DNA of 64,000 bases, taken from the NCBI GenBank assembly GCA_000614405.2, contig GCA_000614405.2_3612.1, one strand, 5' to 3'. This document shows positions 37,939 through 52,031 of this stretch, piece after piece; position 1 is the stretch's first letter, and each line of letters opens with the position of its first letter. Below the pieces are notes generated by a model. That model was not told the origin of the DNA. It did not search any database and saw nothing but the letters and a program-made list of their open reading frames with translations. Origin of the DNA: Escherichia coli O157:H7 str. 2011EL-2287 (GTDB taxonomy: Bacteria; Pseudomonadota; Gammaproteobacteria; Enterobacterales; Enterobacteriaceae). The position numbers were made by a program, and so were the translations under genes.

Positions 37939-37948
37939 AGGAGGTAGG

Positions 37949-38651: not shown

Positions 38652-38714
38652 TACTTGACAACAGCGATAGGACCTAATACAATGGTCCTATCAAAACGAA
38701 AGGGGACCACAACA

Positions 38715-38987
38715 ATGACCAAACAATACCAACGAATTAAAGCCAAGGTTAAGCCAGACTATCTGGAGAAGGACTCTGCTTTTCGGGACTGCACAGCTGA
38801 CAAAGTTTACACAGGGGCCGTCCTGTTGAACGATGAACTTGAAGTAGATATTCTTGGTAAAGAGGCCACTATTAAGGACGACCAAGGCGATTATGTTTGC
38901 TGCACCACACGGGAGCTAGAAATCTTAGAATACTTCGGTGAAATCTTCACCTCTCTTGATGATTACTTAGATGACGAGGAAGCGTAA
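38715..38987 (+). CDS. small paralog-family protein
   Basis: DSAFRDCTADKVYTGA...IKDDQGDYVCCTTREL, paralog of 38397 ORF; promoter-like TTGACA upstream. Confidence 0.4.
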   Translation: MTKQYQRIKAKVKPDYLEKDSAFRDCTADKVYTGAVLLNDELEVDILGKEATIKDDQGDYVCCTTRELEILEYFGEIFTSLDDYLDDEEA

Positions 38988-39376
38988 TGAAAAATATTTG
39001 GGATATTGATATCTTTGAAGCCTCTAAGCTTGACGGTGCTGATGGAGTGATTATGGTGTCTGATGGCAAGGCAACACTAACTTCCGGAGATATCATCTAT
39101 GCCTTGGACGAGCTGGCGCTTCTGAAGTCTACCGGTAACACTCTAGAGGAGCGTCTTCAAGGCTTCGCCTTCAAAGAAGGCACAAATACCGCCATGATGT
39201 GCACCACACGGACAGTTCAGGTGGGTAACGGTGTCTATATGATCATTGCTGTGTGTCCTAAATTCAGCAACGTCAACAAAGATGATACTGACGCTGTCAA
39301 CGATGTGGTTGTTCTCTTCGTTGGTGACGCTATGGCAGATCTGATGAATGCAGGAGAGGCAGCAAATGAAGACTGA
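38987..39376 (+). CDS. hypothetical protein
   Basis: ATGA start-stop overlap. Confidence 0.4.
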   Translation: MKNIWDIDIFEASKLDGADGVIMVSDGKATLTSGDIIYALDELALLKSTGNTLEERLQGFAFKEGTNTAMMCTTRTVQVGNGVYMIIAVCPKFSNVNKDDTDAVNDVVVLFVGDAMADLMNAGEAANED

Positions 39377-39668
39377 AAACATCACCCCCGCAGGGTTCTT
39401 AAAAGTATACCGTGAACTGCTATACACTACAGAGGACAGTATTCTAGAGTATCCAGAGTATCTTTTGCTGTATAAGTATCTGCAGGAGGCTGGTGAAAAT
39501 CTGCCAGTTAGTGCAGAAGGTGGTCCGAACTGGATATACAGCGCATGGAGAAAGGTTGACATTCTCCCAGACCCAGGTAAAGATATGGTAGTTTGGCAGC
39601 TTATCAACAACATCGGGATTCCAATCTTTGATGAAGCTGTTAAAATCTATTTTGAACTTGACGATTAA
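39366..39668 (+). CDS. hypothetical protein
   Basis: ATG after GGAGAGG RBS (ORF track start 39348). Confidence 0.4.
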   Translation: MKTENITPAGFLKVYRELLYTTEDSILEYPEYLLLYKYLQEAGENLPVSAEGGPNWIYSAWRKVDILPDPGKDMVVWQLINNIGIPIFDEAVKIYFELDD

Positions 39669-39685
39669 TATCAGGAGACCTTAAG

Positions 39686-39931
39686 ATGGCTGAAGTAGTT
39701 GCTCGCGCAGGACAGAAAGTACGTTGTGTGGAAGTAGGTTTTGGTGGCAAAGGGTGTCAAAACTTGACTCAAGGTAAGGAATACGCTGTTATTTCTGGTG
39801 GTGGCGACGAGAGTATTGTGTTCGAGGGCCACATCCTGGATGCTGAAAACTTTGAAATCTTTGACGACGATGGAGATCCGATCACCTGCCTGCTGGACGG
39901 GAATTGGGGAACTTTCGAAGTGATTGGCTAA
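39686..39931 (+). CDS. small paralog-family protein
   Basis: GKEYAVIS...FDDDGDPITC pattern; RBS AGGAGA. Confidence 0.4.
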   Translation: MAEVVARAGQKVRCVEVGFGGKGCQNLTQGKEYAVISGGGDESIVFEGHILDAENFEIFDDDGDPITCLLDGNWGTFEVIG

Positions 39932-40014
39932 CAAATACCTATTGTAATTTACAGAAGGGGATGCTAAAATAGTGTCTCCTTCTATGTTGTTCAAATAAAA
40001 TCGGAGATTCCATA

Positions 40015-40380
40015 ATGGAACAAATGAACGATCAAGCGTCGGTTGCGATGAACGAGCAAGAACAACCTCAAGAATTTTTCTTAGGGTTAAGTAAAGATCA
40101 AGTGTCTCTTCTGCTAGTGCTTTCTTCTTTCATGGGAAGACTTCAGGAGCTCACACAACAGCCAGAGGCTGAACAATTATTCCAAGCTTTGCGTGAAGAA
40201 GAAAAATATCGTCGTTTGGACTATGCCTTAGGTTGGGTAGCTCAACAACGGGATATGCTGATGGCCCTCTCTGGGACCACAAGTTTTGCAATGGGCCTGT
40301 TGGCTCAAGTTCAGGACAAATTAATTCAAGCAGGGTTCGCACACACGGCAAGCACTAACGAAGAACAAGGAGACAAATAA
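40015..40380 (+). CDS. hypothetical protein
   Basis: ORF with RBS GGAGA. Confidence 0.4.
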   Translation: MEQMNDQASVAMNEQEQPQEFFLGLSKDQVSLLLVLSSFMGRLQELTQQPEAEQLFQALREEEKYRRLDYALGWVAQQRDMLMALSGTTSFAMGLLAQVQDKLIQAGFAHTASTNEEQGDK

Positions 40381-41606
40381 TGAGCGTTATTCAACAATTC
40401 GCTAACCCAATGAATCCGCGTGAAACTGTTTTACTAGCTCACGGCATGATTAAACGTGTTAGCATCAAGCCTATTAAAGGTGCTGATCCTACAACAGGTA
40501 TTAAAACCACTGTGTGGCAAGGTAAGAAAATTGAATCCAGCCACACCATCTCTTTACTGATTTCTGAACTGGATTCCTCTGATAACCTGCTTCAAGGTGG
40601 TGAAGAAGTCTGGATCAGCATGGGTGATAAGCTGCTTAAACCCGGTCATCAAGACTCTGTCTCTGTTAAGATTGATGACAAGTGGGAAACCGTAACGCCA
40701 GGATGGATCGTAAATATCCCTTTGAAGGCAAACGAGCATAACGGTAAGACCTATTACAAGGGCTCACTGGCTAAGATGGTTAAGCTGGGTGCAGGAGAGG
40801 CTCCAGCAGCGACTCAGCAGCAAAAACAGCAACAAGGTGCACAATCACAAGGCCAGAAGCAGAAACCTCAGCAGAATGCCAATCAGGACGTTTTACGCAT
40901 CTATGGTGATGTGACTCAGATTGTTGGCAACGTGGTTACTGTTAATGACCACAAGATTGGCGAAGGTGCTATGGTTGTAACTGATGAGCAGCTTAAAGAC
41001 CTGGTGGTAGGTGGTCGTGTTGCAGCCATTGTTGACAAAGACACCGGAAACATTATCAGTGGTTTCAAGGCCTATCCTCCTAAGGCAGAGAACGGCACTC
41101 AAGGATCTGGTGGCAAGCGTAAATCCTCTTACGACCCTATCGGTGTGGAAACGGGGCATAGCATCAATGCGTTGCAGATCATCCTGGATCGCGGGTTTAA
41201 GGTAGACGACCCACTGGGCGTGGCTAAAACACTGCACGTAGTCACCATTGAGCTTAAGAAAGAGTATGCTCAAGCCACCAACCGAACTGAAGATGAAGTA
41301 GGTGCCAGTGTCGGTAATGCGGTGTTGAACGCTTGTCGCCGTATTGACAAGAAAACGAAAGTTGATGATTTTGCAGCGGCAATTACTGCAGAAGCAAAAG
41401 ATGTCTTGACTAATCTGGCTGAACCGTTGTACGATTGGATCAAGAACGGTGCTGGGTCAACCGACCATCAAGAACCTCAGGCTGCCAAACAGGAAGCAGC
41501 TCCACAGCAAAACACTGTAGACGCTCCTCCTGTAAATGATGCGGAAGATGACCCAATGGATCAGAATCCAGCACAGTACGCCTTTGATGATGACATCCCT
41601 TTTTAA
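40380..41606 (+). CDS. ssb: single-stranded DNA-binding protein
   Basis: C-terminal acidic tail ...AFDDDIPF identical in form to bacterial SSB tail; Gln/Gly-rich linker; replication-module context. Confidence 0.6.
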   Translation: MSVIQQFANPMNPRETVLLAHGMIKRVSIKPIKGADPTTGIKTTVWQGKKIESSHTISLLISELDSSDNLLQGGEEVWISMGDKLLKPGHQDSVSVKIDDKWETVTPGWIVNIPLKANEHNGKTYYKGSLAKMVKLGAGEAPAATQQQKQQQGAQSQGQKQKPQQNANQDVLRIYGDVTQIVGNVVTVNDHKIGEGAMVVTDEQLKDLVVGGRVAAIVDKDTGNIISGFKAYPPKAENGTQGSGGKRKSSYDPIGVETGHSINALQIILDRGFKVDDPLGVAKTLHVVTIELKKEYAQATNRTEDEVGASVGNAVLNACRRIDKKTKVDDFAAAITAEAKDVLTNLAEPLYDWIKNGAGSTDHQEPQAAKQEAAPQQNTVDAPPVNDAEDDPMDQNPAQYAFDDDIPF

Positions 41607-41621
41607 CAATTAGTTAACATA

Positions 41622-41650
41622 GCCCTGCCCGAAAGGGTGGGGCATTTTTG
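41622..41650 (+). terminator. rho-independent terminator (copy of 31199 terminator)
   Basis: Hairpin GCCCTGCCC-GAAA-GGGTGGGGC + ATTTTTG. Confidence 0.6.
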
Positions 41651-41668
41651 TATAAGGAGATCTGAAAA

Positions 41669-42085
41669 ATGACATTAGAAGATATCATTGTTAAACCTGA
41701 GAACTATGACCAATACAACCTGTCAACTCAATCTGTAGACCTCGGATGCGCCACAGTCAGTGCATGGCTGGTTAACGGAAAAGAGCTTGACGAGTGCCTG
41801 GAAGCACACATGTCGGTGAATAAATTTCTTGATGAAAATACCCACTGGATAGAGGGTGCAGGAGTATATGCTTCATGGTTGGAGAGTATGGGATTCGACT
41901 ACCAATCTGAAGAGGGGTGGTGGAGCTATTTAGCTGTCTGCCCAGAGACGCTGCAATGCTTCATGAAATATTCTGAAGATTTGGAGTACCGGGCGGTGGT
42001 TGATAGTGCCATTGCCCGTTATAGCCGTAAACCTTTTTCCCACGACATTAAAACTGTGGAAGAATTTGTTGAAGTTTTCTGTTGA
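41669..42085 (+). CDS. hypothetical protein
   Basis: ORF with RBS AAGGAGA. Confidence 0.4.
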   Translation: MTLEDIIVKPENYDQYNLSTQSVDLGCATVSAWLVNGKELDECLEAHMSVNKFLDENTHWIEGAGVYASWLESMGFDYQSEEGWWSYLAVCPETLQCFMKYSEDLEYRAVVDSAIARYSRKPFSHDIKTVEEFVEVFC

Positions 42086-42181
42086 CACAGGTTGAAAGGT
42101 GTGCAATTATAACTTCATATAACGGGAGGACGCGATGAACGAAGAAAACTGGGATGTATAACTAACAGGAGGCCACTGCCC

Positions 42182-42379
42182 ATGATTTATCGAATCCGTG
42201 TAAGAGAAGACGCACCAGGCTGTTACTTTGACTGGCGTGGGTGGTGGTTTCTCCACCCAATGGATGGACTCACAGATAGAATGCTGGATGCTGCCCTTTA
42301 CACAGATACCGACATAGAATATAATCTCTATCTGAAGGACGGTATAGATAACGGCCTGTTTGAAGCAATTCCTGTGTAA
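42182..42379 (+). CDS. hypothetical protein
   Basis: ORF with RBS AGGAGG. Confidence 0.35.
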   Translation: MIYRIRVREDAPGCYFDWRGWWFLHPMDGLTDRMLDAALYTDTDIEYNLYLKDGIDNGLFEAIPV

Positions 42380-42447
42380 GAGACTGTGATAACTATGTTT
42401 TATGATCTTCCTGTAGCGCCACCACCTGTTGAACCCGGAGAACTAAG

Positions 42448-42873
42448 ATGATCTATGAAATGCCAAAACTGATTCGTGACGATGCCCAAAACGCTCACAC
42501 CATTATTATGGGCAAACGCATGGATATTATTTGTCATAAAGATTTCTGGGAAGGAAGTTACTTCACAGAGTATTTTGGTAAACTGGACAATGGTCTGCTG
42601 ATCCAGTTCTACACCGATGCGGAAAACAATATCTGCTGGGAGTTCGAAACTGAAGATATCCATAAACTTTTCACCTTCCTCGGTATTAAGGTTGAGGCCA
42701 AGTTTGAAGAAGGTGAGTGCGACGATTGTGGATTCTACGAGGTAACAGATTTCTACCTCCCGAGCGGTGAGAACCTTTACTATGAAAGCCACTTCGGTAA
42801 CTCCAATATGCCACAGTGCTGGACTGAGTTTTTTGAAATTGCGGAAGAGGAGCTGGCATACCGTGATTATTGA
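42448..42873 (+). CDS. hypothetical protein
   Basis: ORF immediately upstream of macro-domain gene. Confidence 0.4.
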   Translation: MIYEMPKLIRDDAQNAHTIIMGKRMDIICHKDFWEGSYFTEYFGKLDNGLLIQFYTDAENNICWEFETEDIHKLFTFLGIKVEAKFEEGECDDCGFYEVTDFYLPSGENLYYESHFGNSNMPQCWTEFFEIAEEELAYRDY

Positions 42874-42922
42874 TACTGTAGGGGGAGATCTAATCTCTCT
42901 TTTCAAGAAAGGGTCGGGCCAC

Positions 42923-43321
42923 ATGATCCACGGTTGTAACTGCTTTCACACAATGGGTGCAGGCATAGCGAAAGACATTGCCCGTGAGTTCCCTCAAGCA
43001 CTGGCAGCCGACAAAGAGACTGCTTATGGTAATCTAGACAAGCTGGGTATGTTTTCTTGTTGGGAGCATTTTGCCAAGAACAGGGCCGTATATGGAATCA
43101 ACCTGTATACCCAGTTCTACCCAGGGCCCAATGCTGAATACTTCTCAATCATGAAAGGTTTTGAGCGAGTCAACGAGGTATTCAAAGGTGTGTCATTGCC
43201 GTTCTACATTCCTAAAATCGGATGCGGTATTGGCGGTCTAAAGTGGGAACATGTAGAAGATGTAATTAATCTTGCAACCACAGATATTGATGTGGTTGTA
43301 GTAGAGTACAAAAAGTGTTGA
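42923..43321 (+). CDS. macro-domain (ADP-ribose binding/processing) protein
   Basis: HGCNCFHTMGAGIAKDI and IPKIGCGIGGLKW resemble macro-domain Gly-rich loops; start uncertain (ORF track frame opens at 42767). Confidence 0.55.
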   Translation: MIHGCNCFHTMGAGIAKDIAREFPQALAADKETAYGNLDKLGMFSCWEHFAKNRAVYGINLYTQFYPGPNAEYFSIMKGFERVNEVFKGVSLPFYIPKIGCGIGGLKWEHVEDVINLATTDIDVVVVEYKKC

Positions 43322-43375
43322 CGACCATCTTCTGAGGTGATATAGTCTCCACAACAACTAAGAGAGGAGAGCACT

Positions 43376-43546
43376 GTGGAGACTAAAATCTTAATTCTTG
43401 CTGTGGTAGATACAACCGAAGGAGCTATATTCGAATCTGCAGGAGGGTATTTCTACCTACCATACGGAAAAAGAACTTCCGAGCCAAGTAAAGATTCAAT
43501 CCGCAAAGTGTTCCCGTGTGCTTTCTGGCTGGAGATTTTGGTATAA
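43376..43546 (+). CDS. small hypothetical protein (56 aa, GTG start)
   Basis: Below ORF-track threshold; strong RBS AGAGGAGAG 7 nt upstream of GTG. Confidence 0.3.
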   Translation: METKILILAVVDTTEGAIFESAGGYFYLPYGKRTSEPSKDSIRKVFPCAFWLEILV

Positions 43547-43572
43547 GATTGCAGAGGATTTGGGAGAGAATT

Positions 43573-43767
43573 ATGAGAAACAAGAAAGAGCTTTACTCTG
43601 GTGAGTGGATCAACGATCAACAGGTGGGAGAGGTAACCTGCTTCCGATGTTTTACCAGGTACAATCTTAAAACTGCACCAAAAAGTGTTCCAAAGACTGA
43701 TGGTTATTACATAAAAGAACCTTATTGCCCAAAATGTAAATGCCGATTATACTGGAGTAACCTGTAA
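43573..43767 (+). CDS. zinc-ribbon protein
   Basis: CFRC ... CPKCKC cysteine pairs; ATG after GGGAGAG RBS. Confidence 0.4.
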   Translation: MRNKKELYSGEWINDQQVGEVTCFRCFTRYNLKTAPKSVPKTDGYYIKEPYCPKCKCRLYWSNL

Positions 43768-43830
43768 AAGATTGACATCTGAAAACTGCAGTGTATAATA
43801 TATGCATAAACTAACAGAGAGTGATGTATT

Positions 43831-44022
43831 ATGGTAATTTTTAACCGGGATGGTATCATAGTTAGACAGCACCCGTTCCTTGAATACTATCAAATTGAGC
43901 AATGGTGCTACGGGGATTGCAGTCACTCCTATGGGCAAAGTTGGGGATATCGTACAGTTTTTGAATCCACAGACCTTGACAAAGTAAGACAGAAAGTTTT
44001 AGAACTTATTAACAACAAGTGA
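43831..44022 (+). CDS. hypothetical protein
   Basis: ORF with RBS. Confidence 0.35.
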   Translation: MVIFNRDGIIVRQHPFLEYYQIEQWCYGDCSHSYGQSWGYRTVFESTDLDKVRQKVLELINNK

Positions 44023-44029
44023 GTATGAT

Positions 44030-44362
44030 ATGGTAACATTAGAAAGACGTAAAGCTATCGCCGCCACACTGGCAGACATCTTTTGGGAGTGCAATTTAAA
44101 AGATACTAGATATTGTGGCGCATCTGTAGATGCATTGTTCCCACGGCCTACTATTGTTGCAATGGGCAACCTGCTCGATGTGGTATATGGAGCATGGGAC
44201 AAGGAAGGTGGATTCTATATCTGGCAACCTGACTACGGGACTTGGAAAGAGGTTAGTGGTTCTTCGGACTTCACTCCTGCAGTGGCTAAAATGGATGGCT
44301 GGAAAATCTATGTCGGTAACGACATGGAACTGAAAGGCGAAATTGTTTACTGGTTACCTTAA
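44030..44362 (+). CDS. hypothetical protein
   Basis: ORF in operon. Confidence 0.4.
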   Translation: MVTLERRKAIAATLADIFWECNLKDTRYCGASVDALFPRPTIVAMGNLLDVVYGAWDKEGGFYIWQPDYGTWKEVSGSSDFTPAVAKMDGWKIYVGNDMELKGEIVYWLP

Positions 44363-44383
44363 GAAAGTCCAGGAGATAAAGTT

Positions 44384-44629
44384 ATGAACAAAGGGTGGAC
44401 ATTTGTAGACGGCGTTAAAAACATGCCTCTAGGAAAGTATATTGTAGCCATGGCAGATGAGAATGGCAATGTGGATTTCGGAGCTTGCGAGGTTGTTCTT
44501 GCAGGATCTGGTAACTATGTGGACAAAACCGGGATAATTAACGGTCAGTTCTACTTTGATCACAACCCTGTTGTAGCGTATATGGCTATGCCAGAGTTCA
44601 AGTTCCCAAAGGAGGGTGCAGATGTTTAA
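44384..44629 (+). CDS. small paralog-family protein
   Basis: RBS AGGAGA; beta-rich small protein. Confidence 0.4.
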   Translation: MNKGWTFVDGVKNMPLGKYIVAMADENGNVDFGACEVVLAGSGNYVDKTGIINGQFYFDHNPVVAYMAMPEFKFPKEGADV

Positions 44630-44819
44630 GCTTAAATCTGCATGGAACATCGCTGTGGGGGACGAGATCCGTATCCCAGGTGGAAAGACCATTATGAAGA
44701 TATCTCGTATCGAGTACGAAGGTGATCGTGTATTTCATATCTTTGCAGAGGATGGTCGAGAAATTTATATACAGGCAGGCTCTCACATCTATATTCGTAA
44801 GAAAGGGGACGACAAATGA
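44616..44819 (+). CDS. small paralog-family protein
   Basis: Overlaps upstream stop; AEDGREIYIQAGSHIYI pattern. Confidence 0.35.
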   Translation: MQMFKLKSAWNIAVGDEIRIPGGKTIMKISRIEYEGDRVFHIFAEDGREIYIQAGSHIYIRKKGDDK

Positions 44820-45145
44820 CAGAGATCATCATTTCAACTGCAGGGTATGTGTTCCTGACAATCATTGCACTGACCATTCTGGTGGTGGTATATGGAATTG
44901 TTATTCTCCCTATTCTTGAGACAATTAGTTTGTGTCGGTGTTGGAGAAAGGCTTACGGTCCACAGCCGTGGAAGGACTGGCCCCACCTGGTGCACATAGC
45001 GTTCTCTTATGCTTATGATCACGCCAGCAGTGCATGCATAACCGGGTATCACGCCCACAACTGGAGCTGGGAAGGGTTGAGGAAATGGAATGTTACAAAG
45101 ACCATACCTCTGCGCATGTACAAACCTAAAAACAAAGACAGCTGA
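44816..45145 (+). CDS. membrane protein
   Basis: N-terminal hydrophobic helix FLTIIALTILVVVYGIVILPIL; ATGA overlap. Confidence 0.4.
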   Translation: MTEIIISTAGYVFLTIIALTILVVVYGIVILPILETISLCRCWRKAYGPQPWKDWPHLVHIAFSYAYDHASSACITGYHAHNWSWEGLRKWNVTKTIPLRMYKPKNKDS

Positions 45146-45454
45146 TACTTGAAAATTCCTGGCATATCAAGTATAAGGGGGATTTCTAAAATGGATTTCC
45201 TCCTTTTGATATTTCACCGGGCCGGATATTTTAAAATTCTTAGAAAATCAGAAAATGGATCGAAAACTAAAATGGATTTTTCAGAGTAGGCGCGACAAGC
45301 TGAATAACTCATCCTATCGTTTGCACCATATTCCAGACCACCATTATAGATTTCCCGCACATGCTTACATCTCGCTACTAGAACTTCCTCCACTTACCCT
45401 TGACCTTTTATAGCAATAATCCAACCACTATCTTGAAGTTGCGGTGCAGCTTTC

Positions 45455-45620
45455 CAGGTACTCGATCTGTTTTTCGTTTCAAAGATTGAATTTTCTGAAA
45501 ATTTTTCTCGATAAATTTCTCAGTACTCGATCTGTTTTTCGTTTTCTGAATCGGATTTTCTGGAAATCGCTCCGGCTCTTGGCCTAAACTTTTTGGGGAC
45601 GAAATCGATTTTTCGTTTTC
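45455..45620. repeat. direct repeats (CAGGTACTCGATCTGTTTTTCGTTT x2 plus related CGAAATCGATTTTTCGTTTTC)
   Basis: Near-identical 25-bp copies at 45455 and 45521; related copy at 45600; AT-rich non-coding context. Confidence 0.5.
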
Positions 45621-45747
45621 AGAAATGGATTTTTAAAATTTCTATATGGGAATATTTTAGTGGATACTATTTTATAGGAAATTGTTACGGAGGGTAATTA
45701 GCGTGCTAATTAAATTTATTAAATGCGAGGAGTTCTCATTTAGAATT

Positions 45748-45766
45748 TTGAATGATAATCATTCTC
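45748..45766. promoter_or_regulatory. Fur-box-like operator (copy 1)
   Basis: TTGAATGATAATCATTCTC matches the Fur consensus GATAATGATAATCATTATC at 15/19. Confidence 0.45.
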
Positions 45767-45780
45767 GTTTGCAGAATAAC

Positions 45781-45821
45781 GGGCAGGCCCGGTGATTGTC
45801 TCCCGGCCCCTACTGCCCCGG
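45781..45821 (+). repeat. GC-rich structured element (copy 1)
   Basis: GGCAGGCCCGGTGATTGTCTCCC core shared with 45921 and, inverted, 54594. Confidence 0.5.
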
Positions 45822-45883
45822 CTTGTTATTATAGTAACACACAGGACAAAGAAAGCAAGAAGTTTTTGCATAAATTTTTAGAC

Positions 45884-45902
45884 GATAATGATAATCGTTC
45901 TC
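45884..45902. promoter_or_regulatory. Fur-box-like operator (copy 2)
   Basis: GATAATGATAATCGTTCTC matches Fur consensus at 17/19; overlaps a GATAAT -10-like hexamer with TTGCAT 18 nt upstream. Confidence 0.5.
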
Positions 45903-45920
45903 ATTTCATGCAGCGCCCAT

Positions 45921-45957
45921 CCCCGGTGGTTGTCTCCCCCGTCACCGGTGCCTGCCG
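45921..45957 (+). repeat. GC-rich structured element (copy 2)
   Basis: CCGGTGGTTGTCTCCCCCGTCACCGGTGCCTGCCG; internal inverted repeat CCGGTG/CACCGG. Confidence 0.5.
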
Positions 45958-46164
45958 TCCTTTCGATAGGTATATTTTGCCACCTGGCGGGGCCGCTGTC
46001 AACACTTTTCAAAAAAAAAAATTTCTAACCTGATGCGCTGACCGCTGCAACCTGGCGGGGCCAGCCTGGCAGGGCCTAACTGACCAGGTAGGAGAGAATG
46101 AAGGCTTGCAAACCTGGTGGGCCTATGCTATAGGATAGGTAACAATTGAAGAGGAGGTACAAAA

Positions 46165-46341
46165 ATGGAAGGTAATATGATCCCCCTGGAAAATGTAGCT
46201 ATTAATGACGCTGAGGCTATCGCCCTGGTTGAAAAGGCTATGGCGGGAGCGTTGGAACATAAAGAAGAGTACGAAAAAATGATGGTTAACCTGGCAGGGG
46301 CGGCGGCTGGAGAATTCTACCCAAAAAATAATTTTAACTAA
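46165..46341 (+). CDS. small hypothetical protein (58 aa)
   Basis: Below ORF-track threshold; strong RBS GAGGAGG before ATG. Confidence 0.45.
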   Translation: MEGNMIPLENVAINDAEAIALVEKAMAGALEHKEEYEKMMVNLAGAAAGEFYPKNNFN

Positions 46342-46344
46342 TGG

Positions 46345-46373
46345 TTGACAGCTCGGACAGTTCTTGTTATTCT
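46345..46373 (+). promoter_or_regulatory. sigma70-like promoter
   Basis: TTGACA-N17-TATTCT upstream of 46429 gene. Confidence 0.5.
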
Positions 46374-46428
46374 TATCCTCGCAAGGTGAACAACACCACA
46401 CCAATTAACAGAGAGGATAAAAAAAATC

Positions 46429-46626
46429 ATGAACGCCTACGGAATTAAAGTACGTCGCAACACTCGCCAGGTGGTCACCAATCAAGTGATTTGCCGGGTG
46501 GATGTAACCATCAACAACGGGCAAGGCCTTTATAAATTTCGTCGCGGTCATAGCTATACCCTGCAACAGCTTAACCGTTGCGCCCTGACAAAAGGTCAGA
46601 TCAACCACTGGTTTAATAAAAAATAA
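46429..46626 (+). CDS. hypothetical small basic protein
   Basis: RBS AGAGGA; own promoter. Confidence 0.45.
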   Translation: MNAYGIKVRRNTRQVVTNQVICRVDVTINNGQGLYKFRRGHSYTLQQLNRCALTKGQINHWFNKK

Positions 46627-46628
46627 TG

Positions 46629-46657
46629 TTGACATATGGTCTGACACAAAATACACT
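46629..46657 (+). promoter_or_regulatory. sigma70-like promoter
   Basis: TTGACA-N17-TACACT upstream of 46690 gene. Confidence 0.5.
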
Positions 46658-46689
46658 GAAATCGCAAAAGACACTAAGAGGATAAAATC

Positions 46690-47088
46690 ATGAAAACCAC
46701 TACCTTTAATTTTGATAATGCGGACTTTTCTTTTTCTGATGTCAAGAACTGCCGCCGTGATCGTGGATTTTACAAGGCTTATAATCTGGTGGGCCTGGAC
46801 GATGACAATAATTTGCACGAAGTAGCTGAGATCCGGTATTATGCCGCCGCCAGTGGTAACACTCACTACTGCGTGTTTTGGATTCACGACAACAAGAACA
46901 ATAAGTACGGTTATACTGGCGGCAAGGCGAGCGGTCACGGTTACGATAAAGCTAACGCAGCACTTGAGAGTGCATTAAATGCTATGGGGATCACTGCCGA
47001 CGGCTGGATCTACGAAGAAGAGTTTTTGTCGGCACTTGCTGACCACCTGGGCTATAAAAAGCACATTGTGACATGCGCCCACGAATAA
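46690..47088 (+). CDS. hypothetical protein
   Basis: RBS AAGAGGA; own promoter. Confidence 0.5.
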   Translation: MKTTTFNFDNADFSFSDVKNCRRDRGFYKAYNLVGLDDDNNLHEVAEIRYYAAASGNTHYCVFWIHDNKNNKYGYTGGKASGHGYDKANAALESALNAMGITADGWIYEEEFLSALADHLGYKKHIVTCAHE

Positions 47089-47102
47089 AAATCATTGACA
47101 CG

Positions 47103-47130
47103 CTGCAAAATTTAAGTAAACTAGACACAA
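47103..47130 (+). promoter_or_regulatory. sigma70-like promoter
   Basis: TTGACA-N16-TAAACT then leader hairpin GGCGGGAA-TGT-TTCCCGCC. Confidence 0.5.
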
Positions 47131-47170
47131 AAGGCGGGAATGTTTCCCGCCAGCACAAAGGAAAAAGATC

Positions 47171-47575
47171 ATGAATAAGAACGTACGCCGCATCATGAAC
47201 GAACTGGCAAACGATGAAAAAATTATTGACATGCACTTAGTGAACATTTGCCGCCGTTGTGTAACCTATAACAACCGCGCCGCAAAAGCGCGTGAGATGA
47301 ACGCAAAAGGCACCTTAAAGCCCTTCCAGGTGGTGGTAAAGGCCATTAAAGATGTAGCTAATACGGCAAACCAGGTACAGGGGAACACCAACGAGAGTAC
47401 CAATATTGATCCGGCTTACATCATGAAACGGATCCGGACCTGCAAGAACAAAGAGCAAGTGTATAACGTCATAGACTGGTTGGATTCCATGGGCGACGTG
47501 GTTTATAATAGGTTTTCTGCAGCCATTGAGATCCAGCTAGACAGGTTGGACGGGAAAGTACTAAAAACTTATTGA
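47171..47575 (+). CDS. hypothetical protein
   Basis: RBS AAAGGAAAAAG; own promoter and leader hairpin. Confidence 0.5.
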   Translation: MNKNVRRIMNELANDEKIIDMHLVNICRRCVTYNNRAAKAREMNAKGTLKPFQVVVKAIKDVANTANQVQGNTNESTNIDPAYIMKRIRTCKNKEQVYNVIDWLDSMGDVVYNRFSAAIEIQLDRLDGKVLKTY

Positions 47576-47576
47576 G

Positions 47577-47623
47577 TTTATTTTTAGATGGCCTTGACTC
47601 CAGGGCCATCGATAAAGTAAACT
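47577..47623 (+). repeat. promoter-stem-loop repeat (PeSL-like) copy 1
   Basis: TTTATTTTTAGATGGCCTTGACTCCAGGGCCATCGATAAAGTAAACT; hairpin GATGGCC/GGCCATC with TTGACT in loop. Confidence 0.55.
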
Positions 47624-47655
47624 AATCTCAGTTAAGCGAAAAAGGGGGCTTTAAG

Positions 47656-47775
47656 ATGGGCACTACACGCCAATACACAAAGGTAACTATTATCGTCTGC
47701 GTTGTCGGTTACATCCTGGCGCAAATGTTAATGAGTAGCGCTAACAGTTTTGCAAAATTTTTCTTAAATTTTTAA
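47656..47775 (+). CDS. hydrophobic micro-protein (39 aa)
   Basis: Below ORF-track threshold; RBS AAAGGGGG; central hydrophobic stretch VTIIVCVVGYILAQML. Confidence 0.35.
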   Translation: MGTTRQYTKVTIIVCVVGYILAQMLMSSANSFAKFFLNF

Positions 47776-47803
47776 TTGACAAGCTAACTTAGATCGGTAT
47801 ACT
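47776..47803 (+). promoter_or_regulatory. sigma70-like promoter
   Basis: TTGACA-N16-TATACT; leader hairpin GGGAA-AAC-TTCCC. Confidence 0.5.
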
Positions 47804-47854
47804 TAAACCCGTAAACGGGAAAACTTCCCAGAACACACAAAAGGAGAAAACACC

Positions 47855-48196
47855 ATGACCACTATGACCGCCGCAGAAAAAGCTATTCAGGTTGCCGCAC
47901 TGAAAAAACAGATCGCAGACCTTGAGAACAAGATCGATACCTTTGAAATCGACGAGGACAAGTACGACGAAAACTATGATGAATGGTTAGACGAGATCTA
48001 CGGAGAAATCATGATCGGAAACATTTCTTTTCTTCCGTCGCGTATCCTCAAGGAGCTAGATCCTATCGCTTACCGCTGCGGATTTAGCGACTACATCGAC
48101 AGCCTGGATATTGAGGACGATGAAGAATACCAGGAATTACAGACAGAGTTAGAAGAAGCAAAAGAAGAGCTTGCGGAGCTGGAAGAAAACGAGTAA
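47855..48196 (+). CDS. hypothetical acidic protein
   Basis: RBS AAGGAGAAAA; Glu/Asp-rich C-terminal half. Confidence 0.5.
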   Translation: MTTMTAAEKAIQVAALKKQIADLENKIDTFEIDEDKYDENYDEWLDEIYGEIMIGNISFLPSRILKELDPIAYRCGFSDYIDSLDIEDDEEYQELQTELEEAKEELAELEENE

Positions 48197-48198
48197 GA

Positions 48199-48244
48199 TT
48201 ATTTTTAGATGGCCTTGACTCCAGGGCCATCAATAAAGTAAACT
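48199..48244 (+). repeat. promoter-stem-loop repeat (PeSL-like) copy 2
   Basis: Near-identical to 47577 element (single G/A difference). Confidence 0.55.
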
Positions 48245-48285
48245 TTATACTGTTAACACTGAACTAATGCATAGGAGTTAAAACC

Positions 48286-48531
48286 ATGGCAGCACTAATC
48301 ACCAAATATTATGCCCCTACCAACACCAAAAGCGCCCGTATCATGGTAAAAGGCTTCGGACGTAAAAAGGTTTACACCTGGGATTATGCCTTAGACACGG
48401 AAGACAACTACACCAACGCGATGACAGATTTTATTAATGAGCTGAACACGCGGATCTTGACAAATTATAAAATTACCGATATTGCCTATATAGGGGAAGG
48501 CGGGATCTGTTTTGTCGGTATCGTCAAATAA
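48286..48531 (+). CDS. hypothetical protein
   Basis: RBS TAGGAG. Confidence 0.45.
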   Translation: MAALITKYYAPTNTKSARIMVKGFGRKKVYTWDYALDTEDNYTNAMTDFINELNTRILTNYKITDIAYIGEGGICFVGIVK

Positions 48532-48532
48532 G

Positions 48533-48580
48533 CTGTTTTTTCGGTGGTCCTGGTAGCAGGGCCATCTATAAAGATAGTTT
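48533..48580 (+). repeat. degenerate promoter-stem-loop-like element
   Basis: GGTCCTGGTAGCAGGGCCATCTATAAAG shares GGGCCATC-ATAAAG core with PeSL-like repeats. Confidence 0.3.
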
Positions 48581-48606
48581 ATCAACACAATGAAAGGAGA
48601 AAGTAC

Positions 48607-48960
48607 ATGATCAGCGGGGCAAGTTTTATTATTGGCGCTATTGCTACGGCTTTAATTGTAAACAAGATCCAATCTAAAAACGAAAAAGAGAGCAACGCGC
48701 TCACAGAATACCCATTTTGGGTATTCAACGACAATGAAGACTACATTATCAAGTACAAGAATGAGAAGGGCGACCAGGTAACACCGCGACCGATCCCGGC
48801 TTACAAGATGCAAGAAACACTATACCGCCTAAAGGCTGGAGGCGCAAAAATCGTAGACTTTTGGGGATATGATTGCAAGGATCAGGAGGTTATAAAGCGC
48901 CGTATCCGGGCTATTCAGGCCAATATTGAAGTTAGCAAGGGGGGAATATATGAAGATTAA
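48607..48960 (+). CDS. membrane protein
   Basis: ATG after AAAGGAGAAAG RBS; N-terminal helix ISGASFIIGAIATALIV (ORF track start 48544). Confidence 0.45.
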   Translation: MISGASFIIGAIATALIVNKIQSKNEKESNALTEYPFWVFNDNEDYIIKYKNEKGDQVTPRPIPAYKMQETLYRLKAGGAKIVDFWGYDCKDQEVIKRRIRAIQANIEVSKGGIYED

Positions 48961-49147
48961 TTTTGAGAAGATTGTAAAGCGATCTCATGATTCCGAAGAG
49001 CTGCCGGAACGACGCCAGCGTAACAATAAACTGAATAAGCCGAAAAGATTTGGGAAGATCTGGCGAAATCACTATGATCGCAAATTACCCAGCCTGCTTT
49101 TGGAACGTGAACGACAAGCGGAACGATACCGCCACAAAGACAAATAG
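48950..49147 (+). CDS. small basic protein
   Basis: ATG after AGGGGGGAATAT; Arg/Lys-rich; overlaps upstream gene end. Confidence 0.35.
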   Translation: MKINFEKIVKRSHDSEELPERRQRNNKLNKPKRFGKIWRNHYDRKLPSLLLERERQAERYRHKDK

Positions 49148-49154
49148 CAACCAA

Positions 49155-49184
49155 CGCCCCGCCATTGTGCGGGGTTTTTTATTT
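49155..49184 (+). terminator. rho-independent terminator
   Basis: Hairpin CCCCGC-CATTGT-GCGGGG + TTTTTT. Confidence 0.6.
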
Positions 49185-49328
49185 CTATCCTACGAATAGC
49201 GCCCCTGGTTGGCCCCACAAACGCCACAAAAGCCCCTACCTATGCAATCCCCTTTATTAACCTGAAAACATCACCCAGGGCCGTTTTATGGTGTTAAAAA
49301 ATATCATTGACAGTGATTTTATTTAAAG

Positions 49329-49357
49329 CTTGACACCTTGGAATAGTCCGGATATAC
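49329..49357 (+). promoter_or_regulatory. sigma70-like promoter
   Basis: TTGACA-N17-TATACT upstream of 49394 gene. Confidence 0.5.
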
Positions 49358-49393
49358 TAACCACATCAAAGCAAGAAGGAAGGAGTAAACGCC

Positions 49394-49654
49394 ATGCGTA
49401 AATTAAAAAATTTTGATAAAGTTGATGTTGTCCTGAATAATTTTTACTACTGCAATAACAAGGCCATTTGGTGGCGTGATAGTTCCACCGATAAAGTCAA
49501 GGCGCGCTTTCTCCAGGGGCACTGGCAAGGCCGTCCAGTGATTAAAATCATGGGGCAATTGGTAGCGTTTAAAAATTGCCGCCGTGTTGATGACGTTGAA
49601 GAGATTTTAAGCATTTTGCGCCACAATAATTTAAAAAATAGTGTTGACAAGTAA
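49394..49654 (+). CDS. hypothetical protein
   Basis: RBS AAGGAAGGAG. Confidence 0.45.
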   Translation: MRKLKNFDKVDVVLNNFYYCNNKAIWWRDSSTDKVKARFLQGHWQGRPVIKIMGQLVAFKNCRRVDDVEEILSILRHNNLKNSVDK

Positions 49655-49671
49655 ATCTCGATAAGTATACT
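49644..49671 (+). promoter_or_regulatory. sigma70-like promoter
   Basis: TTGACA-N16-TATACT; leader hairpin GGCGGGAA-AAC-TTCCCGCC. Confidence 0.5.
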
Positions 49672-49728
49672 TAAACACACAGGCGGGAAAACTTCCCGCC
49701 ACTAACAAAGAAAATAGGAGAAAATATC

Positions 49729-50352
49729 ATGACCACCGTTAACATTACCACAGGTTACAATTTATCTTTCGACGTGCTGACCGATGAACAAAAAGAAAAA
49801 GCTATTGAAATGGTCCGCGAAAGAGAAGAACACAGCGGGGATAACTTTTTTGCAGAAAGTGTAATTGAAGACTATAAAGAACATATCTTTCCAGAGTATG
49901 GCCTTGAAGATACCAAGGTACATTGGTCCGGCTTTTGGTGCCAGGGCGACGGCGCGTCAATCAGTGCGGAAAACGTGGATTTAGAAAAATTCTTGCGTAA
50001 AGTCAAGTCTCTGACTAAATTCCGCTCAATTCGTCACTTGTTCGGCACAATGCACGATGGCGAGCTATCCGCAAGTGTTGAGCGTGATCCATATAGCCGC
50101 TATAGTCACGAAAATACTGTGAGCGGGTACATCGATACTACATGGCTAGACCTGACAGCCAAGCAAGAAAGTAAGGTTGAAGAGCTGGAAGAGTTGATCA
50201 CCGAGAACGTACGGGAACTATCCCGCAAGGTTTACGTAGACCTGGAGCAAGCTTATCTTGAACAATTTACTACCGAAAACCTGATCGGCCTTATCGAGGC
50301 CAATGATTGGCGGTTTGATGTGGATGAATATGGAGAGATGAGTTTTTCATAA
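49729..50352 (+). CDS. hypothetical protein
   Basis: 207-aa ORF, RBS TAGGAGAAAA. Confidence 0.5.
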   Translation: MTTVNITTGYNLSFDVLTDEQKEKAIEMVREREEHSGDNFFAESVIEDYKEHIFPEYGLEDTKVHWSGFWCQGDGASISAENVDLEKFLRKVKSLTKFRSIRHLFGTMHDGELSASVERDPYSRYSHENTVSGYIDTTWLDLTAKQESKVEELEELITENVRELSRKVYVDLEQAYLEQFTTENLIGLIEANDWRFDVDEYGEMSFS

Positions 50353-50360
50353 ATAAAGTG

Positions 50361-50388
50361 TTGCAATAATCTAAAAACCTGCTATATT
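50361..50388 (+). promoter_or_regulatory. sigma70-like promoter
   Basis: TTGCAA-N16-TATATT; leader hairpin GGGGCAA-GACG-TTTGCCCC. Confidence 0.45.
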
Positions 50389-50442
50389 AAAACTCAAGGG
50401 GCAAGACGTTTGCCCCCCACACAAAACAAAGAGGAAAACATC

Positions 50443-50823
50443 ATGAAAAACACTACTAAAGCTATTGACACCGTCATGTTTAACCTGGTTACCTTTCGCG
50501 AGGATATGAAAGATCTTCCACGTGAAACAGTGTGCGATCACATTGAAAACTATCGCAAACTAATCAAAGAGTTGCCTTTAAAACGTGATCAGTATGCGGC
50601 TAACGCCATGCTTAATGCCATGATCAAAAAGATGATCCAGTGTGATTTAACTCTGGCCTATGACTATGCGGGTGGTCGTTTTGCAGTATACAATCAGCCC
50701 GTGCCCGGTATGGGCACCACCGAAGAATTGCACGCGTTAAATCTGAAGCAAGATGTATGGGATAACATGCCCCGCGTGGTGGTGTGGGCAGAAAGCGGAA
50801 AGATTTACGGCGATAATTTTTAA
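50443..50823 (+). CDS. hypothetical protein
   Basis: ATG after AAAGAGGAAAACATC leader (ORF track start 50410 lies within the leader hairpin). Confidence 0.45.
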   Translation: MKNTTKAIDTVMFNLVTFREDMKDLPRETVCDHIENYRKLIKELPLKRDQYAANAMLNAMIKKMIQCDLTLAYDYAGGRFAVYNQPVPGMGTTEELHALNLKQDVWDNMPRVVVWAESGKIYGDNF

Positions 50824-50832
50824 TCAGGTAAC

Positions 50833-50860
50833 AGGCGGCATATTTGCCGCCTTATTGTTA
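50833..50860 (+). terminator. putative terminator hairpin
   Basis: AGGCGGCA-TATT-TGCCGCCT followed by TATTGTT. Confidence 0.45.
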
Positions 50861-50887
50861 AACAGAGTTGCAAAAGAGGTACATAGA

Positions 50888-51259
50888 ATGGAATTTATTA
50901 TTTTGGCTGTAGTAGTTGCCTTGTTCAACGCCTGGATAGCTGGCAAAATAGGTAGATCCGCTTTTCTATGGTTTGTTATATCTATTTTCCTGGGAGTGGT
51001 TGCAACCATTGTACTAGTTATCCTTGCAATTGTTGACAAGGATAATAATAAGAAGGGTAAAGTATTTTCCGACCTGTATGACGCCCAAACTTTTGTTAAC
51101 GCCTATTATAGTGATCTTCCGGTCTCCTTGCGCTGCAGCCTGGCGCAACAAGTTTTTGATGAGGCTAAAACCAGAGATCAAGCCCATGAGATATGTTTAA
51201 CTGAGGCGGATCGCCTATTTGAGAGGAATAGAAAATATGTGGGCCAGCCGTTTAAATAA
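50888..51259 (+). CDS. membrane protein
   Basis: ATG after AAAAGAGG; two predicted TM helices (ORF track start 50753). Confidence 0.45.
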   Translation: MEFIILAVVVALFNAWIAGKIGRSAFLWFVISIFLGVVATIVLVILAIVDKDNNKKGKVFSDLYDAQTFVNAYYSDLPVSLRCSLAQQVFDEAKTRDQAHEICLTEADRLFERNRKYVGQPFK

Positions 51260-51482
51260 TACCACGTTAATTAATCCCTTTAATGAAGATTTGAAGCCAG
51301 CCGCCTGGCGTGATGGATTCAATAACGAACGCTTTATTTTCAGGCCTGATCTTGAGGAATTTTATAACAATGGATCGAACAACGACAGAGATAATTTTTC
51401 TTGTGATGTGCGTGGTGATGGTACTCCTGGGGGACATTGTAAACCACGTCACTACTACCAGGAGGAAAGGGGGAGACGATGA
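51237..51482 (+). CDS. hypothetical protein
   Basis: ATG after AGAGGAATAG; overlaps 3' end of upstream gene; start uncertain. Confidence 0.3.
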   Translation: MWASRLNNTTLINPFNEDLKPAAWRDGFNNERFIFRPDLEEFYNNGSNNDRDNFSCDVRGDGTPGGHCKPRHYYQEERGRR

Positions 51483-51598
51483 CAACCAAGGATAAGCCCC
51501 GCACCGATAAGGTGCGCCAGGTTATGGTATGGCTTGAGATCATCGCCCTTGAAATATTGTTAGGGGTAGGAATGTACTTTATTGCTATAAGTAACTGA
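51479..51598 (+). CDS. hydrophobic micro-protein (39 aa)
   Basis: Below ORF-track threshold; ATGA overlap; RBS GAAAGGGGGAG; TM segment WLEIIALEILLGVGMYFIAI. Confidence 0.35.
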   Translation: MTTKDKPRTDKVRQVMVWLEIIALEILLGVGMYFIAISN

Positions 51599-51602
51599 TA
51601 AC

Positions 51603-51631
51603 GCCCCCGATCATGGGGGCTTAACTTTTTC
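51603..51631 (+). terminator. rho-independent terminator
   Basis: Hairpin GCCCCC-GATCAT-GGGGGC + TTAACTTTTT. Confidence 0.5.
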
Positions 51632-51653
51632 AAAAAATTTTTCTTCCAGGGTG

Positions 51654-51681
51654 TTGCAATCTGGTCCGCAATATGGATAAT
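51654..51681 (+). promoter_or_regulatory. sigma70-like promoter
   Basis: TTGCAA-N17-GATAAT; leader hairpin GGGGA-AACA-TCCCC. Confidence 0.4.
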
Positions 51682-51737
51682 AACAATCAACGGGGAAACA
51701 TCCCCACCAACACAAAAACCAGAAAGGAGAAACAAAA

Positions 51738-51938
51738 ATGAGCAACAATATCCGCGTTATTAACTTCAAAAAAGAAGAAAAAATTGCCGTGCTGATTGAC
51801 GGTCAAGAAATCTTCAAGGGCGACTATGAAGATCATCAAACGGCGATTAGTATCACTCGCGTGATTGGTTACCATAATTTTTACCCCCAAGGCGCTGAGG
51901 CGGCGGTTAAACGAATCAAAGAGATTGTAGGCCTGTAA
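51738..51938 (+). CDS. hypothetical protein
   Basis: RBS AAAGGAGAAA. Confidence 0.45.
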   Translation: MSNNIRVINFKKEEKIAVLIDGQEIFKGDYEDHQTAISITRVIGYHNFYPQGAEAAVKRIKEIVGL

Positions 51939-51939
51939 A

Positions 51940-51985
51940 ATTTATTTTTAGATGGCCTTGACTCTAGGGCCATCAATAAAGTAAA
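51940..51985 (+). repeat. promoter-stem-loop repeat (PeSL-like) copy 3
   Basis: TTTATTTTTAGATGGCCTTGACTCTAGGGCCATCAATAAAGTAAAT; near-identical to copies at 47577 and 48199. Confidence 0.55.
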
Positions 51986-52031
51986 TTTAAACCCTGTTAA
52001 AATACCACGCAGTTAACAAGGAGTGATAGAC

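Follow-up and report, generated by a model that had tools for sequence, protein, structure and literature searches.

A strongly conserved non-coding segment in an rV5-like Escherichia coli phage, tentatively read as half of a control cassette resembling Repeat Region 3 of phage T5

What does a phage maintain in a kilobase of DNA that appears to encode nothing? The question is raised by a 64,000-nucleotide stretch of contig GCA_000614405.2_3612.1 from Escherichia coli O157:H7 str. 2011EL-2287 (the window), which belongs to a Vequintavirus, an rV5-like E. coli myovirus with a genome of ~137 kb. A sequence-only reading of the window had singled out the segment at 45150–45750 as AT-rich, repeat-bearing and non-coding, and had suggested that it could be origin-like or regulator-binding. 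We find that the element is real, strongly conserved, non-coding, and clearly under constraint. Our preferred account, which we advance tentatively, is that the segment forms the inward half of a ~0.9-kb cis-acting control cassette at the inner border of an end-proximal block of early genes. The cassette is best read as corresponding to Repeat Region 3 of phage T5 by its position, module order, and box sequence. In the literature we found no description of this region, and neither transcriptome nor origin mapping for rV5-like phages.

The segment lies in a gap without genes of 1,019 bp (45146–46164), flanked by two small + strand genes (44816–45145 and 46165–46341) whose only matches are PHROGs of unknown function. 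Many rV5-like genomes are 94–99% identical to the window across 44800–46200. The region, conserved in 117 Vequintavirus records, is single-copy, with one matching place in the near-identical genome C7; the gap has no match in E. coli. A search for tRNA and tmRNA genes returned none. GenBank annotations of the gap disagree between relatives. Alignment, diversity, open reading frame (ORF), and composition comparisons were made with 12 Vequintavirus relatives, and none of the ORFs holds a constant frame or length across them, which led us to reject a protein-coding reading and bears out the earlier description of the segment as non-coding. The ORF that begins with the ATG at 45192 ranges from 7 to ~84 codons among relatives, with frame shifts between haplotypes. 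A 93-aa ORF at 45752–46033, annotated as rV5 ORF198, FV3 ORF182, and others, overlaps the boxes and GC hairpins described below, lacks a Shine-Dalgarno sequence, is conserved at every codon position, and is probably not a gene. Several ORF annotations that public genomes carry in this gap are probably spurious.

Whether the segment is conserved had been left to comparison with related phages, and the comparison answers clearly. Pairwise diversity falls to 0.02–0.03 at 45236–45265, 45506–45565, 45596–45655, and 45746–45985, and rises to ~0.26 at 45146–45175 and 45296–45445, with 0.05–0.2 in the flanking genes. The conserved blocks are ~10 times less diverse than the neighboring spacer, a pattern that indicates discrete elements under strong purifying selection between near-neutral spacers. 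A layout of three repeat units also recurs across genera and subfamilies. Taken together, the conserved blocks and this recurring architecture make a regulator-binding region a reasonable reading of the segment.

The repeats had been described as 25-bp tandem copies 66 bp apart. They are real, and their form differs from that description. The exact shared core is a 22-mer, GTACTCGATCTGTTTTTCGTTT, at 45458 and 45523, 65 bp apart; it extends no further because the second copy reads CAG-TACTCG, with one G fewer. When a 19-nt pattern from the core was allowed up to three mismatches, it matched these two sites only in the 64 kb, where 0.02 would be expected. Both cores sit in longer units (45451–45502 and 45516–45567), and the related third copy noted earlier was recovered as a unit at 45590–45641, giving a spacing of 65 and 74 bp. 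Over 52 nt, the second and third copies are 79% and 62% identical to the first. These are interspersed direct repeats and not a head-to-tail array, and Tandem Repeats Finder (TRF) called no array because the likeness is confined to the first half of each unit. A hidden Markov model (HMM) of the unit finds the three unit sites in the window and no others (nhmmer E = 6e-9 for unit 2, which was itself in the training set). Unit 1 is less conserved than unit 2 among relatives (e.g., GATCTACTTTTCATTTC). A CRISPR-like mini-array was also considered and dropped, given the unequal units and a gap without host match, with no direct comparison made between the units and host CRISPR repeats.

Short motifs accompany the units. 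The motif that had been reported four times in the segment does occur four times, as exact copies of AAAATGGAT at 45188, 45252, and 45269 and as GAAATGGAT at 45622. On both strands of the window, AAATGGAT occurs five times, four of them inside 45188–45632, and all three exact copies of AAATGGATTT fall within the same interval. The description of the segment as AT-rich applies at 45150–45300 and 45450–45750, where GC content is 27–39% with lows of 27–32% at 45450–45550 and 45600–45750, and not at 45300–45450, which at 44% GC is close to the window as a whole (~44%). An inverted relationship between the left block and the units was sought by local alignment, and the score lay within the shuffle range.

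The left edge of the segment carries two hairpins (Table 1). At the site of the first, the alignment shows relatives with a hairpin of different sequence, its pairs not formally counted. The second resembles an intrinsic terminator. In this hairpin 98.3% of alignment cells are paired, and four of eight pairs change on both sides, compared with 0–1 in slid controls. Its G-U pairs are compatible with + strand RNA only, and RNAalifold gives −13.5 kcal/mol on the + strand and −4.8 on the − strand. Covariation establishes the hairpin, and from it we infer the intrinsic terminator of the upstream operon. That operon holds rIIA/B, helicase, methylases, primase-helicase, DNA polymerase, and many small genes on the + strand. 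The segment had been placed at the end of a late/replication block. The operon is one of replication and early/middle genes, and the label 'late' does not apply to it.

Between the left block and the units lies a variable spacer whose composition is kept while its sequence is not. At 45300–45440 it holds 30–35% C and 9–13% G, with a C/G ratio of 2.5–4.1 in all 12 relatives. It contains the 140 nt with the strongest C skew in the entire window, (C−G)/(C+G) = 0.54, and the spacer of phage W70 has the same C skew. By composition, 45300–45440 has the make-up of a rut site (untranslated RNA, C-rich and G-poor over 80 nt or more). On a rightward RNA the spacer looks like a Rho-loading tract, and on a leftward RNA it would look like a G-rich, R-loop-prone segment.

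On the other side of the units are palindromic boxes, a GC-rich hairpin, and a leftward sigma70-type promoter. The promoter (46002→45974) faces the boxes and repeat units from inside an otherwise rightward gene array. A sigma70 promoter scan of the + strand reported none at 45146–45970, and inspection of the units by eye found no usable −10/−35 in Vequintavirus. Box 1 occupies the spacer of a promoter-like sequence, an arrangement that is also found in CR3 and W70 and partly in other lineages. The boxes resemble the Fur box of E. coli (consensus GATAATGATAATCATTATC; 7-1-7 form TGATAATnATTATCA), with matches of 17/19 at 45884–45902 and 15/19 at 45748–45766, and perfect 7-1-7 copies occur in T5 and BME3. 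Many phage copies differ in having G at position 4 (TGAGAAT), and the resemblance to Fur boxes is one of sequence only. These Fur-box-like sites adjoin the repeat segment, inside which lies only the degenerate box at 45721–45741. The T5 paper makes no mention of Fur, and a synthetic two-box query against E. coli genomes returned a few strain-specific intergenic matches only and was uninformative. Separately, a GC-rich motif, (A)CCTGGCGGGGCC, is present in 4–5 copies in the stretch that separates the leftward promoter from the first gene downstream (45981–46122, 46288), with another copy at 52838. Matches with up to one mismatch number 4 against 0.46 expected, and relatives carry indels here.

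How far this arrangement extends was examined through the gene downstream of the gap, which has homologues in Certrevirus, Klebsiella phages, and other relatives. A similar gap lies upstream of those homologues, measuring 958 bp in CR3 and 1,260 bp in FBKp34. The same module order is found at similar offsets in seven lineages: the window, W70, CR3 with phiTE, GAP31, KP12, FBKp34, and phi92-like BME3. A stop codon is followed by one to four copies of GATATTT, by ATGGATTT/ATGGTTTT motifs, by a lineage-specific spacer, and by three tandem 60–80-bp units. After the units come two to five palindromic boxes (AATGAGAATCATTCTCATT), a GC hairpin around GGTGATTGTCTCC, and a leftward promoter of the form TTGACA, 17–18 nt, yATAmT. 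GATATTT stands at the same position one to three times in W70, CR3, phiTE, GAP31, and BME3 (twice in the last) and four times in KP12. In most lineages it directly follows the upstream stop, and in FBKp34 one exact copy lies further in. Motifs related to ATGGATTT or ATGGTTTT occur in either orientation in GAP31, KP12, phiTE, and FBKp34. A promoter equivalent to the leftward one (TTGACA/TTGACG/TTGCAA, 17–18 nt, yATAmT) is present in W70, CR3, phiTE, GAP31, FBKp34, BME3, and KP12.

Within this common layout the units vary. The unit HMM aligns them across Vequintavirus, Seunavirus, Certrevirus, and Klebsiella phage KP12, with a Vequintavirinae consensus of GGGTnCTCGATCG..TTTTC..ATCGTATT.. that often ends in AAAAAATTTTT, and blastn finds units in 80 records of Vequintavirinae and related enterobacterial phages. 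BME3 has three units at the same place with a different sequence. The HMM gave no significant match in T5, BME3, or FBKp34, so we claim no homology of the units outside Vequintavirinae. Boxes, hairpin, and leftward promoter are universal across the lineages, and the unit sequence differs between them. Retention of the layout while the unit sequence changes by lineage suggests sites that co-evolve with a lineage-specific binding protein.

Three observations concern cassettes in other phages. In Certrevirus, Seunavirus, W70, FBKp34, and BME3, a highly conserved element of ~110 nt (..CTACCGGCGATCCACCTTCCGACCTGG...GGTACGTTAGCCCCGCCTTTnCGCCGTGGGGTGGC..) follows closely downstream of the leftward promoter. 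Rfam has no match to this candidate new non-coding RNA (ncRNA), and Vequintavirus lacks it, carrying a second box-plus-hairpin unit in its place. A small leftward ORF (MxTxTLHLMHxLxWQGGTVHQVAxxTGLxV...), helix-turn-helix (HTH)-like by eye, lies by the cassette in phiTE, W70, and FBKp34. In BME3 an ORF occupies the same position in the same orientation. Pfam gives no match for the HTH-like ORF, whose only matches are PHROGs of unknown function. The window lacks this ORF, which could encode the cassette's DNA-binding protein in the lineages that carry it. Lastly, the record of Salmonella phage R7 (PQ002170.1) is cut exactly between the units (141571–142007) and the box array (68–304), with 'attR'/'attL' annotated at the record ends. 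Either a break in the assembly at repeats or a genuine end may account for the cut.

Queried with the CR3 gap, a distant blastn search matched 516 phage records, including T5-like Demerecviridae. In the T5-like phages the match covers the box array only, inside the long terminal repeats (LTR) at ~8.7–9.9 kb. This position is T5 Repeat Region 3 (9194–10409 of AY587007), an untranslated region containing the injection stop signal, the shear point of first-step transfer (FST) at ~9618, and the 7.9% nick (10.1101/866236). T5 direct repeat C (DRC) and palindromes E–I read TTTTTAAATGAGAATCATT(A/C)TCATT and are the same box, and six copies of a T5-specific direct repeat, DRD, lie immediately inward of them. 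Direct comparison of T5 with the window likewise shows similarity over the boxes only, at 45690–45779 and 45875–45908 of the window.

Both regions are non-coding over 1 kb or more, abound in repeats and palindromes, and are more strongly conserved than their flanking ORFs (for T5, 10.1101/866236). Each lies ~8–9% from a physical end (9.2–10.4 kb in T5 and ~11–12.7 kb for the cassette) and sets a block of small genes transcribed by host RNA polymerase apart from the remaining genome. Each has an array of AAATGAGAATCATT(A/C)TCATT palindromic boxes with lineage-specific direct repeats immediately inward of it. The differences are also substantial. The T5 inverted repeats IRD'-spacer-IRC', with their paired DnaA boxes, are absent from the window, which shows no similarity to that part of T5. 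The T5 region sits within a ~10-kb terminal repeat, compared with a direct terminal repeat (DTR) of 459 bp located ~11.6 kb away here (PMC7471380). T5 LTR proteins searched against the window by tblastn gave nothing below E = 0.3, with no homologue of A1, A2, or dmp, though remote homology is possible. The present phage is moreover a contractile-tailed myovirus with no reported two-step transfer. Given the lack of unit homology to DRD, the correspondence rests on boxes, module order, and position.

Position relative to the genome end can be fixed from the terminal repeats. Vequintavirus DTRs are 458–459 bp (PMC7471380, PMC6658697, PMC6563267), and the 459-bp DTR of phage Gotham, annotated at both ends of its record, has its homologue at 57349–57805 of the window. 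The gap therefore lies 11.6–12.7 kb from the physical end, ~8.5–9% of the genome. Small genes occupy the interval as far as a 2.5-kb non-coding terminal region, and transcription between gap and end runs towards the end. The cassette is 10.9–11.9 kb from the end in Gotham and 11.4–12.4 kb in BME3, the latter distance following from the redundant ends of the BME3 record. We searched for boxes with the pattern TGAKAATnATTMTCA, allowing up to two mismatches, and took the expectation from a Markov-1 random model. Eight of the nine matches in the window fall in the end-proximal 12.7 kb, four of them within the DTR; the model expects 1.4 per 64 kb. In Gotham, BME3, KP12, and T5, boxes occur in the first 12–550 bp from the end or record start and again in a cluster at 9.5–12 kb; the T5 example is a perfect box 233 bp from the left end, inside dmp. 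The sequence-only reading had held the segment distinct from an iteron array near 57 kb, a separation that is not complete: that array is the genome's terminal-repeat region, and the same type of palindromic box occurs in both. Away from the cassette, boxes in the window were seen at 57647–57794 (inside the DTR homologue), 54190, and 54969, and at other loci at L013 12–160, L024 55, 250, 1161, and 1219, L026 400–1185, and L020 233.

Under the control-cassette account, the intrinsic terminator at the left edge would end the long rightward replication and early operon, and the C-rich, G-poor spacer would serve as a Rho-loading (rut-like) back-up for read-through RNA. The three units and the AAATGGAT/GATATTT motifs may be binding sites of a lineage-specific, probably phage-encoded DNA-binding protein. 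Units, Fur-box-like operators, GC hairpin, and leftward promoter together would then form a nucleoprotein boundary with two possible roles, to shield the terminal early-gene block from inner-genome transcription and to time the border promoters. Intrinsic and Rho-dependent terminators provide a familiar parallel, in which a covarying hairpin and U-tract after the last gene is followed by a ~150-nt C-rich, G-poor tract. Termination alone differs in leaving the three conserved 65–75-bp units and the AAATGGAT/GATATTT repeats unexplained.

Several observations weigh against this account and keep it tentative. No candidate for a protein that binds the units was identified, the binding being deduced from sequence; the units are not dyad-symmetric in Vequintavirus, and by the unit HMM neither T5 DRD nor the BME3 units show homology to them. 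The stems of the terminators are weak, rich in A/U, and closed by large loops, and the C-rich skew is weak in CR3, GAP31, and FBKp34. Helical phasing of A/T tracts, as in curved DNA, was not significant after correction for multiple testing. Both sides of the gap are dense in strong sigma70-like promoters, and the gap is therefore not a simple border between early and non-early genes. On the T5 side, experimental studies of the function of T5-like repeats are lacking (PMC10644984).

An origin of replication, the other half of the earlier suggestion, is in our judgment unlikely. RNA from the leftward promoter (46002→45974) might form an R-loop at 45440→45291 and prime DNA, or the units might be initiator-binding iterons. 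Iterons are three or more direct repeats of ~17–22 bp at a regular spacing of about two helical turns. As in plasmid theta origins, lambda ori, and P1 oriR, the region here is single-copy, has direct repeats that adjoin an AT-rich stretch (27–37% GC) of the kind expected of an unwinding element, and lies near replication genes, downstream of the helicase, primase-helicase, and DNA polymerase cluster. Repeats specific to each lineage are also typical of iteron/initiator pairs. In contrast to iterons at ~20–22 bp, there are three imperfect repeats (the 22-nt core exact twice, the third degenerate) at 65–74 bp. DnaA boxes (TTWTNCACA) are absent from 45146–46164 and number three in 64 kb, fewer than by chance. 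No initiator gene was recognized beside the region; PHROGs of unknown function are all that the flanking genes match, and the gap holds no conserved ORF.

Transcription-primed origins are the closer parallel. R-loop priming is known at T4 oriF/oriG and ColE1, and a G-rich RNA composition favors R-loops. Like the T7 primary origin and T4 oriF/oriG, the present locus has a conserved promoter facing an AT-rich region and then a stretch giving G-rich RNA; the promoter is kept in every lineage examined, and the skewed composition persists despite sequence divergence. The origin reading stays viable because this promoter points into the AT-rich region and then the skewed stretch. The likeness is purely compositional and positional, and the skew reads equally as a Rho-loading site on the opposite transcript. 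Skew analysis of rV5 shows only changes that go with transcription direction (PMC3606486), the T5 origins lie near the genome center and not at the analogous region (10.1101/866236), and a fixed distance of ~11–12 kb from the end in two subfamilies is not required of an origin.

We regard as rather improbable a T5-type injection stop, in which DNA enters from the nearby end and pauses at the cassette after ~8–9% of the genome, with boxes and repeats as stop or anchor sites, which would let the terminal early genes be expressed first. The fractional position matches T5, and the AAATGAGAATCATT-type boxes are common to T5 DRC/palE–I at the FST shear point (10.1101/866236). The order is also the same, running from the end through small sigma70-driven genes mostly transcribed endward to boxes and then direct repeats. 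A non-coding region more conserved than its flanking ORFs, as in T5 (10.1101/866236), and boxes near the physical end in Gotham, BME3, KP12, and T5 (position 233) are in keeping with this view. Against it are the absent IRD'/IRC' paired DnaA boxes, the lack of A1, A2, or dmp homologues by tblastn, and a 459-bp terminal repeat that excludes the cassette. Two-step transfer is documented only in T5-like siphoviruses. A milder argument is that Vequintavirinae are 'exceptionally susceptible' to restriction-modification (PMC8594841), which a protected second-step entry of the T5 type would not lead one to expect. At the same low level of confidence, rV5-like and phi92-like myoviruses and T5 may share an 'early-domain', a ~10–12-kb early block bracketed by two clusters of the same box, one at the physical end and the other at the cassette, with tandem repeats specific to each lineage just inward of the latter. 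The cassette would then gate delivery as a pause or topological anchor. If so, the tandem repeats would be lineage-specific stop or anchor sites.

There is a slim chance that the repeats are modules of an ncRNA, running either rightward as far as the hairpin and U-tail of unit 3 or leftward from the conserved promoter at 46002. Consensus folds are more stable on the + strand than on the − strand throughout. The terminator scan reported the unit-3 hairpin (45590–45640), for which RNAalifold gives −17.8 on the + strand and −7.9 on the − strand. This hairpin tolerates only substitutions that keep pairing, but these are one-sided and give no compensatory proof. Opposing an ncRNA are the Rfam searches (no match at E ≤ 1 in 44000–47000 and nothing meaningful in five related loci) and whole-region folding, which on both strands was not significant (z −1.4 to +0.4). 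Covariation outside the terminator hairpin is almost nil, no + strand promoter was found upstream of the units, and units 1 and 2 have no hairpin. That the repeats are a functionless leftover duplication, hitch-hiking with neighboring operators and promoters, is highly improbable: unit 1 does differ from unit 2 in many relatives and TRF called no array, but units 2 and 3 are ten times less diverse than the adjacent spacer and the three-unit layout is kept across genera and subfamilies.

Features of the gap and of related cassettes are collected in Table 1. Two further observations concern the surroundings. Predicted terminator hairpins number 31 in 46165–57000, where 11 are expected, and 6 in 33000–45200, where 10 are expected. 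The closest database records, MG0656xx, are labeled 'Campylobacter phage' with Campylobacter jejuni as host; they are unannotated and 98–99% identical to E. coli Vequintaviruses, and the labels are probably wrong or the samples contaminated.

Table 1 Features of the gap and its cassette, with two elements found in related loci (L, locus handle; a dot marks features without strand).
Feature	Position	Strand	Description
First hairpin	45142..45177	+	After stop codon of 44816-45145; arms CTGATACTTGA, TCAAGTATAAG; inverted repeat I8
Intrinsic-terminator-like hairpin	45175..45215	+	Stem 45175-45182/45198-45205, T-rich tail TTTTGATATTT; AAAATGGAT at 45188 in loop
GATATTT pair, left border of cassette	45208..45231	+	Repeats at 45208 and 45225
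Near-invariant A/T-rich block	45224..45283	+	AAAATGGAT copies 2 and 3 at 45252, 45269; diversity 0.02 at 45236-45265
Variable spacer	45291..45440	+	Three haplotypes, diversity ~0.26, C-rich and G-poor; 1- and 2-nt indels
Tandem unit 1	45451..45515	+	Core GTACTCGATCTGTTTTTCGTTT at 45458; aligns with GAP31, KP12, CR3, phiTE units
Tandem unit 2	45516..45589	+	Core at 45523; best-conserved unit, diversity 0.03 at 45506-45565
Tandem unit 3	45590..45665	+	15-bp G-U hairpin 45590-45625, U-rich tail, GAAATGGAT at 45622, second small A/U hairpin
Palindrome TAATTAGCGTGCTAATTA	45695..45712	.	Kept in 12/12 relatives; perfect form TAATTAGCATGCTAATTA in some
Degenerate box AAATGCGAGGAGTTCTCATTT	45721..45741	.	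Left end of box array; T5 DRC similarity reaches 45690-45779
Box 1 TTGAATGATAATCATTCTC	45748..45777	+	7-1-7 core in spacer of promoter-like TTGAAT (45748), 18 nt, CAGAAT (45772)
GC-rich hairpin GGGCAG...CTGCCC around CCCGGTGATTGTCTCC	45781..45818	.	Kept in W70, CR3, phiTE, GAP31, FBKp34, BME3, KP12
Box 2 GATAATGATAATCGTTCTC	45884..45902	.	17/19 match to E. coli Fur-box consensus
Leftward sigma70-type promoter	45974..46002	-	TTGACA, 17 nt, CAAAAT, TG upstream; -35 invariant in 12/12
~110-nt element	L018 3855-3965 (CR3); L019 ~1490-1610 (-); L021 ~2170-2290; L023 ~1860-1970; L024 ~11670-11790 (-)		
Small leftward ORF	L022 1877-2308 (-); L021 2308-2574 (-); L019 946-2205 (+ of locus); L024 11402-11614		

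The comparison shows that distantly related myoviruses of the Vequintavirinae and Stephanstirmvirinae carry a cassette with the boxes, module order, and fractional distance from the end that are seen in T5, without its DnaA boxes. The cis elements behind the T5 injection stop have been an open question for decades, and the shared cassette gives leverage on it by narrowing the conserved core to the palindromic boxes and the lineage-specific repeats beside them. Tractable phages that carry the cassette, such as BASEL isolates, are open to tests of staged entry, Fur dependence, early-domain insulation, and origin function.

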